Below the pieces are notes generated by a model. The model was not told the origin of the DNA, searched no databases, and saw only the letters and a program-made list of their open reading frames with translations. A program made the position numbers and the translations under genes. Of a DNA stretch of 64,000 nt, positions 27,996 through 51,310 are shown in pieces. The DNA is from a virus. Taxonomy: Duplodnaviria > Heunggongvirae > Uroviricota > Caudoviricetes. The DNA is taken from the IMG/VR virus record IMGVR_UViG_3300037067_007156, positions 205,519 to 269,518 of that record; one strand, 5' to 3'. The stretch's first letter is position 1, and each line of letters begins with the position of its first letter.

Positions 27996-29630
27996 ATGGA
28001 TTCAAAATTAAACATTGGGATAACAATTTTTCTACAAGAAGAAAATCACAGTGTTTGGACAAATGGTATAATGCAAAATGCTGTTTATTTAGCAAGGACT
28101 TTTCAAAATTCTTCTAAGAAATATAATGTATATCTTGTTAATACGAGTAACACTAATATTACAAATAAATTGTGTTGGAATTTAAATGAATATAAAACAG
28201 TTCAATTTAATGATATAAAAGATAAATTAGATATTATATTTCCATTGGGTGGTTCTATTGATAAACCAACAACAGAATATTTAAGAAATAGAGGATGTAA
28301 GGTAGTTCCATATAAATGTGGTAACGAATATATTATTAGTATGGAAAATATCATTTTTAACCGTCAAGATATTATTAAAGATTACCCAGAAGTAGACCAA
28401 GTGTGGAATATACCTCAAATGGAAAATACTAACCATCATTATTGGAGAGTGTTACATAATGCTGAAACTATCACAATACCTTTTATTTGGAATCCTATGT
28501 TTTTAAACATGCATATAGATGAGTTAAAAAAACAGGGAAAAAACCCATATTATACACCAAGTAAATTAAGTAAAAAAATATCAATATTTGAACCTAATAT
28601 TAATGTTTATAAATTTTTGATGTATCCAATGTTAATAATTGAAGACTTATATCGGGAATATCCACATTTAATAAAGAGTGTTATGGTAACAAATACTCAA
28701 AAAGTGAGATTAACAAAAGAGCTTGGTTCAATTATGAACCAATTGTCAATAGTTCATGATAAAAAGGCAACATTCGAAAATAGATTTCCTGTTGCTTGGT
28801 TTTTAACCGAACACACTGATGTTGTTGTATCACATCAATGGGAAAATGCTTTAAATTATGCGTATTTAGATGCTATTTATTTGAAATATCCTTTAGTTCA
28901 TAATGCATATTTATGCGAAGATTGTGGTTATTATTATGAGGGGTTTAATGTGACTGAAGGTAAAGAACAATTATTATACGCATTAACTGAACATGATAAA
29001 CATCTGGAAGAATATGATGAAAAAACCCAAAAAGTTTTAGAAAGATATTCTACCGATAATAAAGAAGTTGTAGAAAAATATGATGAATTAATTAGTAATC
29101 TTATGAACACTAAATCGATTATATCAAATTTTGTTCCTACAAGTTTTGGTGCATTTAAATCGGAAATCAAAGATTATATATTAACTAATTTTGATAATGA
29201 TAAAACGACCATATTAGATGTTGGTGCTGGGTGTGGAACTTATGCTGATATTCTTAACGAATATAAAAATATAGATGCTGTTGAAATTTATGAACCCTAT
29301 ATAAATAAATATGATTTAAAAACAAAATATAGAAAAGTTTATAAAACAAATATATTAGATTTTGAATTCGATTATTATGATATAATCATAATGGGGGATA
29401 TATTAGAACATTTAACAATCGATGACGCTCAAAATCTGATAAATAAATTATATAATAAATGTAAACAACTAATAATAAGTGTACCTTTTCTTATGAAACA
29501 GTACGGACTTGAAAATAAAAATGAAGACCATATTCAAGATGATATAACTGAAGAAATTATGGTTACCCGATACCCAAGTTTACAGAAAACATGGAGCAAC
29601 AATATTATTGGAGTATATTTTAAAAAATAA
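27996..29630 (+). CDS. DUF2827-like GT-B protein fused to a class I SAM methyltransferase
   Basis: IGITIF...SVWTNGIMQNA, FEPNI and VVSHQWENALNYAYLDA, then ILDVGAGCGTY...GDILEHL. Confidence 0.75.
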   Translation: MDSKLNIGITIFLQEENHSVWTNGIMQNAVYLARTFQNSSKKYNVYLVNTSNTNITNKLCWNLNEYKTVQFNDIKDKLDIIFPLGGSIDKPTTEYLRNRGCKVVPYKCGNEYIISMENIIFNRQDIIKDYPEVDQVWNIPQMENTNHHYWRVLHNAETITIPFIWNPMFLNMHIDELKKQGKNPYYTPSKLSKKISIFEPNINVYKFLMYPMLIIEDLYREYPHLIKSVMVTNTQKVRLTKELGSIMNQLSIVHDKKATFENRFPVAWFLTEHTDVVVSHQWENALNYAYLDAIYLKYPLVHNAYLCEDCGYYYEGFNVTEGKEQLLYALTEHDKHLEEYDEKTQKVLERYSTDNKEVVEKYDELISNLMNTKSIISNFVPTSFGAFKSEIKDYILTNFDNDKTTILDVGAGCGTYADILNEYKNIDAVEIYEPYINKYDLKTKYRKVYKTNILDFEFDYYDIIIMGDILEHLTIDDAQNLINKLYNKCKQLIISVPFLMKQYGLENKNEDHIQDDITEEIMVTRYPSLQKTWSNNIIGVYFKK

Positions 29631-29638
29631 AAATATTA

Positions 29639-30748
29639 ATGAAGAATATTGCTATTACATTGGGAGTTAGAGAAAATAATGAGAGTTTATGGATTAATGG
29701 TATTAAATTAAATAGTTTATATTTAGCTAAACTTCTTAAAAACATTGGGAAATATAATGTTTTTTTCGCTAATACTACAAGTAAAGATTTCACACAATAT
29801 GCTTTTGACACGAATGAATTTCCAGTACATCATATTTCAGATGTAAAAGACGATATTGATATATTAATATCACTTGGTGGTCAAATAGACCAAGATATGA
29901 CAACATATTTAAAAAATAAAAAAACAAAAATTGTATCATATAAATGCGGAAATGAATATGTCATTAGAATGGAAAATGTTTTATTTAATCAAGATATTGG
30001 AAATTCTATAATATGGTGTAATCCAGATTATGATGAAATATGGTGTGTACCACAGGTTTTTGAACATAATAAATATTATTTCAATAGATTTCATAAAAAT
30101 AATAATGTAAAATCTGTACCATTTATATGGGATTCATTTTTAATTGACGAACTGACTTCAAAATTAAAAAATAATCCACACTATACACCAAAAGAAACAC
30201 CAAAAACAATCGCAATACTTGAACCTAACCAAGATGTTTTAAAATATGCTATGTATCCTATTTTGATTGTTGATGATGTGTATGAACAAAGACCAGAATT
30301 AATTGAAAAATTGTTTGTTACTAATACTTTTAATATCCGAAAACATAAAGTGTTTATAGAATATATGAATCATTTAAGTATTGTAAAAAATCATATGGCC
30401 ACTTTTGAAGATAGATTTTCAACCGTTGAATTCTTAGCCGATTATGCTGATATTGTAGTTAGTCACCAGTGGGATAATCCATTGAATTATTTTTATTTAG
30501 ATGTAGCATATCTCGGTCATGCGATACTACATAATGCCCCTATGTGTAAAAATATTGGATATTATTATGAAGGATTTAATGGTAGTAGTGCTGCTGATAA
30601 ATTAATATGGATTTTGGAAAATCATGATAAGACTTTAGATGAATATAATGAAATAAACAAACAAACTATCTTCTCTTATGATGCTGATAATGAGATTAAT
30701 ATATCAATATACAATAATTTATTAAATAATTTAATTGAAAATTATTAA
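29639..30748 (+). CDS. DUF2827-like GT-B protein (paralog)
   Basis: SLWINGIKLN, LEPNQ and VVSHQWDNPLNYFYLDVA. Confidence 0.75.
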   Translation: MKNIAITLGVRENNESLWINGIKLNSLYLAKLLKNIGKYNVFFANTTSKDFTQYAFDTNEFPVHHISDVKDDIDILISLGGQIDQDMTTYLKNKKTKIVSYKCGNEYVIRMENVLFNQDIGNSIIWCNPDYDEIWCVPQVFEHNKYYFNRFHKNNNVKSVPFIWDSFLIDELTSKLKNNPHYTPKETPKTIAILEPNQDVLKYAMYPILIVDDVYEQRPELIEKLFVTNTFNIRKHKVFIEYMNHLSIVKNHMATFEDRFSTVEFLADYADIVVSHQWDNPLNYFYLDVAYLGHAILHNAPMCKNIGYYYEGFNGSSAADKLIWILENHDKTLDEYNEINKQTIFSYDADNEINISIYNNLLNNLIENY

Positions 30749-30752
30749 AATT

Positions 30753-49731: not shown

Positions 49732-49732
49732 A

Positions 49733-50473
49733 ATGATAAATTATAATGATTTTTTAATATTGTTAAAAGAAGGTTTGATAAGAACTCATAATATTAGGAC
49801 TAATTATGATAATTTGGAACACCAATTAAATTTTAATGGTATTGATGCTTATGTTCATGTGTTGACGGATTACACGTATGACGTTGAGATTAGAAATCCT
49901 GATTGGTTAAGTAATATAAAACAATGTGAATATTTTATAAATATTAATGGTAATTATGGTTACTTCCCAAATAAATACAGATGTTATAGAAATATCAAAG
50001 AAAACCGATTTAAATTTGAAAAAGTAAAAAACACATCAAATTTAAATTTAGATATTTTCTTAAAAAATATAAAAAATTGTACTAAAATCATTGTTGTTTT
50101 TGAAGCAAAATTCGAATCTGGTTTATATAAAAAAAATAAAGATGTTCCAGATATTTTATATCATTTATCCCCAGTTAACAATAAAGAAAAAATCTCAAAA
50201 AATGGTTTAATACCCAAATCTAATAATAGAATATCTTATCATAAAGATAGAATATATCTTTTTAAAAATTTAAATGATTATGAAAAATTATTAACATCAT
50301 TTAAAAATGTTGATAACTATAATTTAATTGATGAAATAAAATATGATTTATATGAAGTAAAATTAGATAAAGAAAAAATCATATTACATCAAGACCCTTA
50401 TTTTAATGATGGTTTTTACACATATGATAATATATCACCTAAAGATTTGGTGATAATAAAAAATGATTTATAA
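49733..50473 (+). CDS. Tpt1/KptA-like ART-fold protein with leader (paralog 4)
   Basis: LYHLS...GLIPK...RIYLF. Leader ...LLKEG. Confidence 0.7.
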   Translation: MINYNDFLILLKEGLIRTHNIRTNYDNLEHQLNFNGIDAYVHVLTDYTYDVEIRNPDWLSNIKQCEYFININGNYGYFPNKYRCYRNIKENRFKFEKVKNTSNLNLDIFLKNIKNCTKIIVVFEAKFESGLYKKNKDVPDILYHLSPVNNKEKISKNGLIPKSNNRISYHKDRIYLFKNLNDYEKLLTSFKNVDNYNLIDEIKYDLYEVKLDKEKIILHQDPYFNDGFYTYDNISPKDLVIIKNDL

Positions 50474-50476
50474 AAA

Positions 50477-51310
50477 ATGAACAAAATTTTTGTTATTGGA
50501 AGCAATGGAATGCTTGGTAAATATGTATATACATTCTTAAAAGAACAAATGATAGATTATAAAGTGTTACCTATCACAAGAAAAGAATTAGATATTACAG
50601 AATTATCTTATGATGAATTAAGAAGAAAATTTTTGTTTTGGGGATTGTCCAAAAATGATATTATTATCAATTGTGCTGGTATGATTAAACAAAGAAATGA
50701 TTCACCAGATACCGATTTTATTATAGTAAATTCATTATTCCCCCATTATTTGACACTAATATGTAAATTACATGAAGCACGTGTTATCAGCGTTAGCACA
50801 GACTGCGTATTTATCGGATTATCAGGGAGTTACGATGAAAAATCAAAACATGATGCAGATGATTTATATGGCAAATCTAAATCACTTGGTGAACCAGTAG
50901 AAGCAACTGTTATAAGAACTTCTATAATTGGTGAAGAACTTAATAATAAAAGGTCTTTATTAGAATGGGTAAAATCAAATAAAGGTAAAAATGTTTTTGG
51001 TTTTACGAACCATAAATGGAATGGTGTGACATGTGTTCAATTAGCTAAAATTATAAAACAAATAATAAGTGATGGTTTATATTGGAGTGGTGTTCGACAT
51101 ATTTTTTCACCAAGAACATTAAATAAATATGAATTAGTAGAAACTATTTCTAATATTTATAAATTAAAACTAAAAATAACACCAAAAGAAACTACTGAAA
51201 ATTGTTTTAGGGATTTAGCATCAATTTATGATGAGGTTAAATATTTTAACATACCTGATTTGGTGGAGCAAATAAAAGAATTAAAAGATTATGACATCCT
51301 CAACAAATAG
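50477..51310 (+). CDS. NDP-4-keto-6-deoxyhexose 4-reductase (RmlD-like SDR)
   Basis: GSNGMLG, STDCVF, YGKSK..GE and IRTSIIG. Confidence 0.9.
   Translation: MNKIFVIGSNGMLGKYVYTFLKEQMIDYKVLPITRKELDITELSYDELRRKFLFWGLSKNDIIINCAGMIKQRNDSPDTDFIIVNSLFPHYLTLICKLHEARVISVSTDCVFIGLSGSYDEKSKHDADDLYGKSKSLGEPVEATVIRTSIIGEELNNKRSLLEWVKSNKGKNVFGFTNHKWNGVTCVQLAKIIKQIISDGLYWSGVRHIFSPRTLNKYELVETISNIYKLKLKITPKETTENCFRDLASIYDEVKYFNIPDLVEQIKELKDYDILNK

Follow-up and report, generated by a model that had tools for sequence, protein, structure and literature searches.

The window analysed here, a stretch of 64,000 nucleotides, covers bases 205,519–269,518 of a 639,979-bp genome held as a single IMG/VR record, and at positions 27996–51787 it carries a block of ~24 kb, the island, whose genes resemble those of glycosyltransferases (GTs), methyltransferases, a sulfotransferase and sugar-nucleotide enzymes. 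We hold, with slightly better than even confidence, that the enzymes of the island assemble a complex hetero-oligosaccharide in the cytoplasm, directly on fibrous proteins of the phage's own virion. A sequence-only reading of the window had proposed such cytoplasmic glycosylation of virion proteins, and the anatomy of the block, the link between its DUF2827 genes and proteins with SLST-type (S[LIV][ST]T) repeats, and the matches of neighbouring genes to PHROG virion families all lend it partial support, though the enzymes may make use of host carrier and export proteins. That reading had also spoken of a complete pathway, which is too strong, since a single donor-sugar route is encoded and several of the open reading frames (ORFs) are unrelated inserts; as the phage encodes only that one route, the other donors and 3'-phosphoadenosine-5'-phosphosulfate (PAPS) must be supplied by the host.

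The source genome has direct terminal repeats, a CheckV completeness of 100%, a GC content of 25.7% and 27 tRNA genes. It belongs to a huge tailed phage and not to a giant virus, because it has a Terminase_6N gene, gives no match to a nucleocytoplasmic large DNA virus (NCLDV) capsid (in a search whose control gave no match either) and has window genes that match PHROG virion families; on these grounds and on the tRNA count a giant-virus origin was rejected. A Pfam search of the genome for Phage_sheath found no match, which is uninformative, and neither megablast with the island nor tblastn with DUF2827 found a match among 50,697 GenBank phage records. Between 27996 and 51746 every ORF lies on the plus strand (as do all window genes given below without a strand), with gaps of -62 to +67 nt across most of the run, confirming the co-oriented, tightly packed arrangement reported from the letters alone. 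From 27996 to 40261 the ORFs are contiguous, with overlaps or 1–67-nt gaps and only weak internal terminator-like sites. The end of the block had been set at 51310, which was not borne out: a hairpin with a 12-bp stem at 51759–51787 closes it, after a last ORF (51291–51787 with the hairpin) of 151 aa that has no named family and has an ortholog in the related genome G001. Naming genes by their start positions, the firm tally from predicted families is 12 GT proteins (13 catalytic domains), three methyltransferase domains, one sulfotransferase-like protein and three sugar-nucleotide enzymes. The figure of 12 replaces an earlier estimate of about 14 because 40766 and 41673 have no family and 42977 has only a sub-threshold GT7C match, so that none of the three has a verified GT family; Pfam confirmed the two DUF2827 proteins, six GT2 domains (in five proteins), GT32, GT10 and GT47, the methyltransferase domains (the C-terminus of 27996, and FkbM in 38045 and 42382) and the nucleotide-sugar enzymes (WecB in 43864, a dehydratase in 47950, RmlD-like in 50477).

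The two DUF2827 genes lead the island. The first (27996–29630) encodes a GT-B-type GT (residues 7–366; PF10933, 1.8e-118) fused to a class I S-adenosylmethionine (SAM) methyltransferase domain (residues 390–497), to which the Pfam families Methyltransf_23, 12 and 25 match below their cut-offs, and the second (29639–30748) encodes another GT-B-type GT (PF10933, 2.9e-106). Their PF10933 scores, 396 and 356 bits, exceed the cut-off of 25, with profile positions 1–362 of 362 covered. The first keeps the residues that are invariant in the alignment of the DUF2827 family, and its orthologs in the related genomes G001 and G002 are 80–87% identical. An alignment-based AF2 model of the second protein (predicted local distance difference test, pLDDT, 89.6) has two Rossmann-like domains in a GT4-like GT-B arrangement, and among its VIA structure matches are BshA (Z 25.2, root-mean-square deviation (rmsd) 3.8, 324 residues aligned), TarM (Z 23.8), SdgB (Z 21.6, rmsd 4.3, 327 aligned), a cytoplasmic enzyme that O-glycosylates adhesins with Ser-Asp repeats, and the T4 alpha-glucosyltransferase (AGT; Z 20.6), with TarM, MshA, PimA, SdgB and T4 AGT all at Z 20–24. 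The model thus has the fold of GT-B, GT4-like retaining GTs, and since its matches span BshA, TarM, SdgB and T4 AGT, the fold does not name the acceptor. A complex model of DUF2827-1 (residues 1–372) with DUF2827-2 scored 0.84, the best of three controls scoring 0.00, on a scale whose mark is reached by 58 of 80 solved complexes and by 2 of 110 mismatched pairs; contact agreement between runs was at least 89%, partner pLDDT at least 88 and the interface pseudo-symmetric. The modelled pair is dimer-like, and a heterodimer is inseparable from homodimers here because the chains are paralogs (42–43% identical) and GT4 dimers are among solved structures. We regard the 27996 product as a candidate initiating protein O-GT, subunit 1.

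The likely acceptors lie on either side of the island, which stands between two blocks of Ser/Thr-rich fibre-like ORFs (22–31% serine plus threonine, S+T), as had been noted before. The upstream block (19531–24747) comprises 19531–21189, 21231–23192 and 23557–24747, at 26–27% S+T; 21231 and 23557 carry SLST-type repeats, which makes them candidate acceptors, and both match PHROG families annotated as head decoration (phrog_2647, 9.9e-20) and virion structural protein. The downstream block (56277–63058) comprises 56277–60005, a protein of 1242 aa with 29% S+T, seven SLST motifs and 18-residue DTSLSTxISxExSxRxSx repeats, then 60024–62303, and 62351–63058, with 31% S+T and a weak PHROG tail-fibre match. 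Only four of the genome's 1,290 ORFs have three or more SLST-type motifs (21231, 23557, 56277 and 62351), and all four flank the island. Genes of the upstream fibre block also precede DUF2827 in G001, G002 and two smaller loci, L015 and L016: an SLST fibre of the 23557 type stands directly before DUF2827 in G001 (646 aa, 14 motifs) and in G002 (644 aa, 8 motifs), and a fibre of the same type does so in L015 and L016 (849 aa, 38% S+T), while G001 has a third DUF2827 copy on the other side of its SLST fibre. More widely, DUF2827 relatives occur on 120 IMG/VR contigs, and across 79 viral loci S/T-rich proteins of at least 250 aa make up 19% of genes one or two positions from DUF2827 against 9.5% farther away (Fisher p = 4.6e-5).

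A similar neighbourhood is found in bacteria. DUF2827 genes have been described in two or three tandem copies adjoining trimeric autotransporter adhesins (bioRxiv 10.64898/2026.01.22.700529), and our set of 80 bacterial genomes, mostly Burkholderiales, agrees with that report: tandem copies, three or four, occur in 64 of them, and an ORF with many S[LIV][ST]T motifs (at least six, at most 238) is present in 61, lying in all 61 within 3 kb of DUF2827 and in 54 within 1 kb, most of these ORFs having autotransporter-type C-termini. In one such locus (L017) a protein with a 14-residue SLSTGLSATNSNVT repeat leading to a YadA-like anchor is encoded directly upstream of three DUF2827 genes.

A further conserved neighbour, at 53472–54125, encodes a putative J-domain (DnaJ-like) protein. 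The protein itself has no Pfam DnaJ match at E < 0.01; the alignment of its family has the signature KIKKIYRxIAKxTHPDK, with H and D invariant and P nearly so, and against the PDB the family profile has 59 matches at E values of up to 1, the best at 4.3e-5, all of them J-domains except about five weak ones (E at least 0.08). Homologs lie within four genes of DUF2827 in 42 of the 79 viral loci, usually directly upstream and co-oriented. L016 has the DUF2827 pair only, and L015 has the order DUF2827, sulfotransferase, DUF2827, sulfotransferase, GT8; because the pairing of DUF2827 with the J-protein gene recurs across viral loci, the island appears to have grown by insertion between the two members of an older core, DUF2827 and the J protein, with L016 and L015 as smaller stages.

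The whole 60-kb neighbourhood is shared gene for gene with the IMG/VR genomes G001 (675,678 bp) and G002 (421,673 bp, incomplete), in the common order of fibre genes, DUF2827 pair, GT run, sugar-nucleotide genes, J-protein gene and further fibre genes. The 5' third of the island and its three sugar-nucleotide genes are 65–90% identical to their counterparts, but where the window has its middle (40240–43798) both relatives carry different GTs, methyltransferases and sugar enzymes: G001 has three methyltransferases, a sugar C-methyltransferase, a GT31 and a rhamnosyltransferase-like protein, and G002 has a GT32/TcdA-like GT, a split transketolase, a GT10, a short-chain dehydrogenase/reductase (SDR) epimerase and an FkbM protein. 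Such conserved ends around a variable middle are also found in O-antigen loci and in the clade-specific clusters of Megavirinae (PMC10117803). The pattern suggests that selection from outside acts on the product, and it would fit one that diversifies and is displayed on a surface.

The three sugar-nucleotide enzymes fit a single route. A WecB-type non-hydrolysing UDP-GlcNAc/UDP-6-deoxy-HexNAc 2-epimerase (43864–44940, 358 aa; PF02350, 7.9e-84) passes the cut-off of 210 for TIGR00236 (wecB) with 243.9 bits and probably has an Mg536/WbvD-like role. A 4,6-dehydratase of the inverting PseB/FnlA type (47950–48963, 337 aa; Polysacc_synt_2, PF02719, 1.3e-96) matches the structures of FlaA1 (2gn4, 1.2e-73) and Mg534 (4tqg, 2.9e-52), and NCBIfam places it in the inverting PseB/FnlA group at scores under both equivalog cut-offs. 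An RmlD-like 4-reductase (50477–51310, 277 aa; PF04321, 1e-16; RmlD in the PDB, 1.7e-10) would correspond in role to Mg535/WbvR. The dehydratase, reductase and epimerase correspond in family and length to Mg534, Mg535 and Mg536, through which Megavirus chilensis produces UDP-L-Rha2NAc, and as predicted also UDP-L-Qui2NAc, for the glycans of its fibrils, so that the trio has the enzyme types of the UDP-L-RhaNAc/L-QuiNAc pathway (Mg534/535/536; WbvB/R/D). Its predicted product is accordingly UDP-L-RhaNAc, UDP-L-QuiNAc or both. A pseudaminic or legionaminic (nonulosonic) acid route is unlikely, because neither a DegT aminotransferase nor NeuB was found in the genome.

Between the DUF2827 pair and this trio runs a series of transferases and modifying enzymes. 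GT2 proteins (PF00535) are encoded at 30735–31559 (GT-A, 1.2e-9), 33871–34668 (1.9e-11), 35587–36330 (1.3e-24) and 38670–39392 (5.1e-17), and a two-domain GT-A protein (GT2 + GT2) at 32253–33848, which matches PF00535 in two stretches as well as Glyco_transf_7C and Glyco_tranf_2_2 and is missing from G002. To these are added a GT32-type (DXD) GT (34736–35587; PF04488, 1.7e-8), a GT10-like protein with a fucosyltransferase C-terminal domain (36327–37217; PF00852, 2.6e-12; no ortholog at the same position in G001 or G002), a GT47 exostosin-like GT (39392–40261; PF03016, 2.6e-17) and a GT that has no Pfam family and is conserved in G001 and G002 (37219–38028). The GT-A call made earlier for this last protein is upheld by the Atlas, in which its own model (predicted template modelling score, pTM, 0.92) has template modelling (TM) scores of 0.86–0.91, about 0.9, to GT clusters that include GT-D-containing Bacillota proteins. 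An FkbM methyltransferase is encoded at 38045–38668 (PF05050, 6.4e-17). The sulfotransferase-like protein (31572–32249), conserved in G001 and G002, has no Pfam match of its own at E < 0.01; its homolog P0126 carries PF00685, its family alignment shows a 5'-phosphosulfate-binding (5'-PSB)-like ERHTGSKW N-terminal loop and a 3'-phosphate-binding (3'-PB)-like RNPYDWIxS, with the lysine of the first motif replaced by arginine, and its family profile ranks sulfotransferases first in the PDB (5x2b, 6.8e-5), so that conservation of the PAPS motifs and the profile match support the sulfotransferase-like assignment first made by eye. The GT part of the variable middle (40766–43798), with no orthologs in G001 or G002, consists of 40766–41698, from a large conserved family with 313 homologs and no Pfam match, 41673–42443, with no family match in Pfam, 42382–43023, an FkbM methyltransferase by Pfam, and 42977–43798, a possible GT-A protein with a weak, sub-threshold match to GT7C. 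The 40766 family (~300 aa, 52–75% identity) has more than 300 environmental members, Tara Oceans contigs among them, and has no Pfam domain and no match of its profile in the PDB; the label of possible GT-B is our assumption from a C-terminal motif, the single-sequence AF2 model having a pLDDT of 33. Phmmer searches of the PDB with 31572, 37219, 40766 and 41673 returned nothing useful.

Machinery for lipid-linked synthesis is missing from the island and from the genome. Scanned by Kyte-Doolittle hydropathy (19 residues, threshold 1.6), a crude measure, no island protein reaches 1.6 and none is thus predicted to have a transmembrane (TM) segment. The same scan of all 1,290 ORFs found only one with more than four hydrophobic segments, and this is tape-measure-like; no flippase, polymerase, ligase or GtrA/B/C membrane protein was found in the 640 kb. 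Bac_transf (PF02397) is absent from the genome, in a search that was positive in 9 of 14 control genomes, and no initiating phosphoglycosyl transferase, whether of the WbaP/PglC Bac_transf kind or of the polytopic WecA type, was found in the whole genome. From the hydropathy scan and the absence of Bac_transf we conclude that genes for an initiating transferase, a flippase, a polymerase, a ligase and Gtr-type proteins are all missing from the genome. The earlier claim that the island lacks membrane anchors is upheld, and the lack of flippase, polymerase and lipid-carrier transferase noted there extends to the 640-kb genome; the further claim that this is no normal O-antigen or serotype-conversion locus stands as far as export machinery is concerned and loses force in that GTs with no TM segments are typical of O-antigen assembly too. 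Host carrier and export proteins could still serve the phage GTs. The one polytopic-looking protein of the genome (C1:8519–10801, minus strand, outside the window; 760 aa, ~14 hydrophobic segments) was considered as a flippase, GT-C or oligosaccharyltransferase and rejected, having no Pfam match and only phage neighbours in the Atlas with a T4 tape-measure lead.

Under the reading we favour, glycosylation of the phage's own fibres, the DUF2827 GT-B pair, probably dimeric, would start the glycan by attaching a sugar to Ser/Thr residues in the SLST-type repeat stalks of the fibre or head-decoration proteins encoded on either side, and the GT-A, GT32, GT10 and GT47 enzymes would extend the chain sugar by sugar from host and phage nucleotide sugars. 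The 4,6-dehydratase, 4-reductase and 2-epimerase would supply UDP-L-RhaNAc and/or UDP-L-QuiNAc, the FkbM and class I methyltransferases and the sulfotransferase-like enzyme would cap the glycan, and the J-domain protein may recruit host Hsp70 during modification or folding of the fibres. The variable middle would then give each related phage a different glycan. A bolder form of the proposal, which we advance tentatively and place somewhat below even, is that DUF2827 is a new family of cytoplasmic protein O-GTs for SLST-type stalks, an enzyme-substrate pair common to trimeric autotransporters and phage head and tail fibres and working with a J-domain co-chaperone, which in the largest phages has grown into a 24-kb hypervariable island giving a methylated, sulfated L-RhaNAc/L-QuiNAc virion glycan, the counterpart of the giant-virus fibril coat.

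The main rival is remodelling of the host surface, in which the soluble GTs would build an oligosaccharide on host undecaprenyl-phosphate and the host's initiating transferase, flippase or ABC exporter, and ligase would display an altered lipopolysaccharide (LPS) or capsule that blocks superinfecting phages during long infection or pseudolysogeny. O-antigen GTs typically have no TM segments, FkbM methyltransferases and L-RhaNAc/L-QuiNAc are classic features of O-antigens, and the variable middle would fit surface diversification equally well. It is moreover how polymorphic multi-GT clusters of jumbo cyanophages (PMC7824862) and the 13 GTs of cyanophage S-SCSM2R (PMC12801897) have been read in print. 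We nevertheless judge it unlikely, though deserving of serious weight: the 640 kb hold none of the initiating, flipping, polymerising, ligating or Gtr-type membrane proteins, DUF2827 is tied in 61 of 80 bacterial genomes to fibrous proteins and not to polysaccharide loci, three genomes have the island at the same place within the fibre module and L015 and L016 show a minimal version of this arrangement, and the J-domain partner has no obvious role in lipid-linked synthesis.

A division of labour, with the DUF2827 pair (and the J protein) alone modifying fibres and the downstream GT, methyltransferase and sugar-nucleotide genes serving another product, whether a glycolipid, an oligosaccharide that stays free or is secreted, or modified host proteins, would account for the many viral loci, the majority, that have DUF2827 and the J protein with no large GT run, for L016 with its DUF2827 pair only, and for the tolerance of mixed content that the unrelated inserts imply. 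The contiguity of 27996 to 40261, with its weak terminator-like sites, is instead what one operon would give, and the intermediate L015 suggests stepwise growth of one pathway; we think a split of this kind rather improbable. Decoration of modified bases in the phage DNA as a defence against restriction is in our view very improbable. It would draw on the resemblance of the DUF2827 fold to T4 AGT, on the MazG-like deoxynucleoside triphosphate (dNTP) pyrophosphohydrolase encoded within the island, on a thymidylate-synthase-family gene elsewhere in the genome with a lone GT2 gene ~5 kb from it, and on the existence of GTs in DNA-hypermodifying phages (Pyle et al. 2024, as cited in PMC12619734). 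At least 12 GTs, a sulfotransferase and a 6-deoxy-HexNAc route go far beyond known DNA glycans, however, and the ThyA-like gene scores 309 bits to PF00303, like canonical synthases, and lies 110 kb away; the DUF2827 genes of bacteria adjoin adhesins, and those of phages lie in structural modules next to the J-protein gene.

Several observations weigh against glycosylation of the fibres. The glycans on virion proteins are deduced from genes alone, and the DUF2827 fold is about as near to T4 AGT, which glucosylates DNA (Z 20.6), as it is to GTs of small molecules (BshA, Z 25). Peripheral, TM-less GTs are also the norm in undecaprenyl-diphosphate-linked O-antigen assembly, for which a carrier, flippase and ligase could be borrowed from the host. 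The strict SLST motif occurs in just 0.9% of the genes neighbouring DUF2827 in the 79 viral loci; a generalised SLST link was rejected for this reason, and the motif link is limited to the near relatives of this phage and to bacteria. Because the bacterial genomes and the phage genomes are related among themselves, the independent associations are fewer than the counts suggest. The J protein of the window reads HLD in place of HPD. As to co-expression, a hairpin terminator parts the island from the fibre operon in G001 and G002, and the motif TAATATATA, which stands ahead of the fibre genes and of the J gene, does not precede the island.

This promoter-like positional motif has 205 copies in the genome against ~146 expected, 63 of the 205 lying 20–29 nt before ORF starts; it occurs 8–45 nt upstream of 99 ORFs spread over the genome, with plus-strand copies in the window at, for example, 9132, 11695, 13114, 23516, 53443, 56239 and 62319. 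A promoter shared with the island was rejected, since GAACCCAA, which lies ahead of the island, does not recur as a motif across the genome and TAATATATA is missing before the island.

Among known systems the closest are the fibril clusters of Megavirinae and the virion glycosylation of mycobacteriophages. The Megavirinae clusters (Mimivirus, Megavirus, Moumouvirus and Tupanvirus; PMC10117803, PMC9614988) comprise 6–33 genes for nucleotide-sugar enzymes, many GTs, methyltransferases and sulfate-related enzymes, use no ER/Golgi or lipid-carrier route, are clade-specific in content and are AT-rich like their genomes, and in all these respects the island is alike: it clusters nucleotide-sugar enzymes, multiple GTs and modifying enzymes, and its content differs among related viruses. 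It shares with them the three-enzyme set for L-RhaNAc/L-QuiNAc (4,6-dehydratase/5-epimerase, 4-reductase and 2-epimerase, Mg534–536), and we liken its product, predicted from its genes, to theirs, which decorates virion fibrils. Unlike them, the island belongs to a tailed phage with a bacterial host and has a J-domain partner; its lead enzymes are DUF2827 proteins, which were not noticed among those reported from Megavirinae. Mycobacteriophages are, like the present phage, tailed phages with GTs of their own, and their glycans have been found on virion proteins, at the C-termini of capsid and tail-tube subunits (Freeman et al. 2023, according to PMC12619734 and PMC12801897, the location being given in the former), so that the earlier statement that virion glycosylation is poorly described in tailed phages is partly outdated. 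Phage Maravista has two putative GTs (PMC11256854). Where the mycobacteriophages, as summarised there, have few GTs, the island has at least 12, a dedicated sugar-nucleotide route and candidate acceptors of the fibre type.

Bacterial adhesins offer a second comparison. SdgA and SdgB, which act on Ser-Asp repeats, and GtfA and GtfB with their follow-on GTs, which act on serine-rich repeat proteins, resemble the island in having a soluble GT4-like GT-B enzyme next to a Ser/Thr-rich fibre, tandem paralogous GTs and stepwise soluble extension, and the proposed pairing of DUF2827 with trimeric autotransporters (bioRxiv 10.64898/2026.01.22.700529) involves the same PF10933 family; the island differs from these systems in being far larger and in having as candidate acceptor a virion protein that is never secreted. 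The clusters for LPS or capsular polysaccharide modification of jumbo cyanophages (PMC7824862; PMC12801897) share with it many polymorphic GT families, sugar-nucleotide enzymes and very large genomes, but they are read as modifying the host surface, with no report of nesting among fibre genes or of a DUF2827 lead. The novelty lies in the scale for a tailed phage, in the J-domain partner and in a link between DUF2827 and SLST repeats that bridges the adhesins of bacteria and the fibres of phages. If the proposal is right, the glycosylation machinery of a tailed phage can be as elaborate as a giant virus's, with consequences for how virions stay hidden from hosts, grazers and immune systems or attach to them, and the default host-surface reading of jumbo-phage GT clusters is challenged. 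DUF2827, widespread in Burkholderiales adhesin loci and on more than 100 uncultured phage contigs, would gain a function and a substrate motif, and the enzyme pair with a repeat fragment would allow a simple recombinant test in a system that cannot otherwise be cultured.

About six island ORFs are inserts unrelated to the pathway: 40240, four ADP-ribosyltransferase (ART)-like paralogs and, less clearly, the MazG-like gene. The first (40240–40737) is a small-gene insert ending in a CRISPR-like array, with a 37-nt direct repeat present four times at a period of 66 nt; its family has 11 copies in the genome, and it sits within the variable middle that G001 and G002 lack. The ART-like paralogs form two pairs, at 46525–47932 (no Pfam match, 42–52% mutual identity) and, recognised by paralogy, at 48979–50473. 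All four (46525, 47231, 48979 and 49721; 233–250 aa) belong to a phage-only family with seven to nine members in the genome by BLASTP, counting the query and varying with it, and none of the four is found in G001 and two are found in G002. Each has a leader-like N-terminus (YLxLIxEG) and the conserved segment YHLS...NGLxPKS...RIYLF, and the Atlas gives the family a weak ADP-ribosyltransferase (Arr/PARP) lead, at 0.87–0.88 only. The MazG-like dNTP (dATP/dGTP) pyrophosphohydrolase (45351–45890; PF04447, 2.2e-7) is found at the same place within the sugar-nucleotide part in this phage, G001 and G002.

The WecB ortholog of G002 (IMGVR_UViG_3300037067_004891; L013:4269–6728) is an 819-aa ORF split by an intein with a LAGLIDADG endonuclease, and the adjoining RmlD ortholog (L013:11933–14038, 701 aa) is overlong and may hold a second. 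A 5.5-kb contig from a giant-virus metagenome-assembled genome (MAG) (L019, IMGVR_UViG_GVMAG-M-3300009149-7_000001) carries a pair of DUF2827 genes, 60% identical to the copy in the window, that enclose two small sulfotransferase-like ORFs, and is probably a misbinned phage fragment. In the window, three minus-strand ORFs at 24804–28015 lie between the fibre gene and the island, one of them with several weak matches to helix-turn-helix (HTH) and NUMOD1-like domains; they are absent from G001 and G002, the last overlaps the first gene of the island by 20 nt, and together they are probably a mobile insertion. Farther upstream, amid structural genes, are a GIY-YIG/NUMOD3 homing-endonuclease-like gene (8264–9067, minus strand) and a gene for a DUF7487 protein (17457–19406, minus strand).

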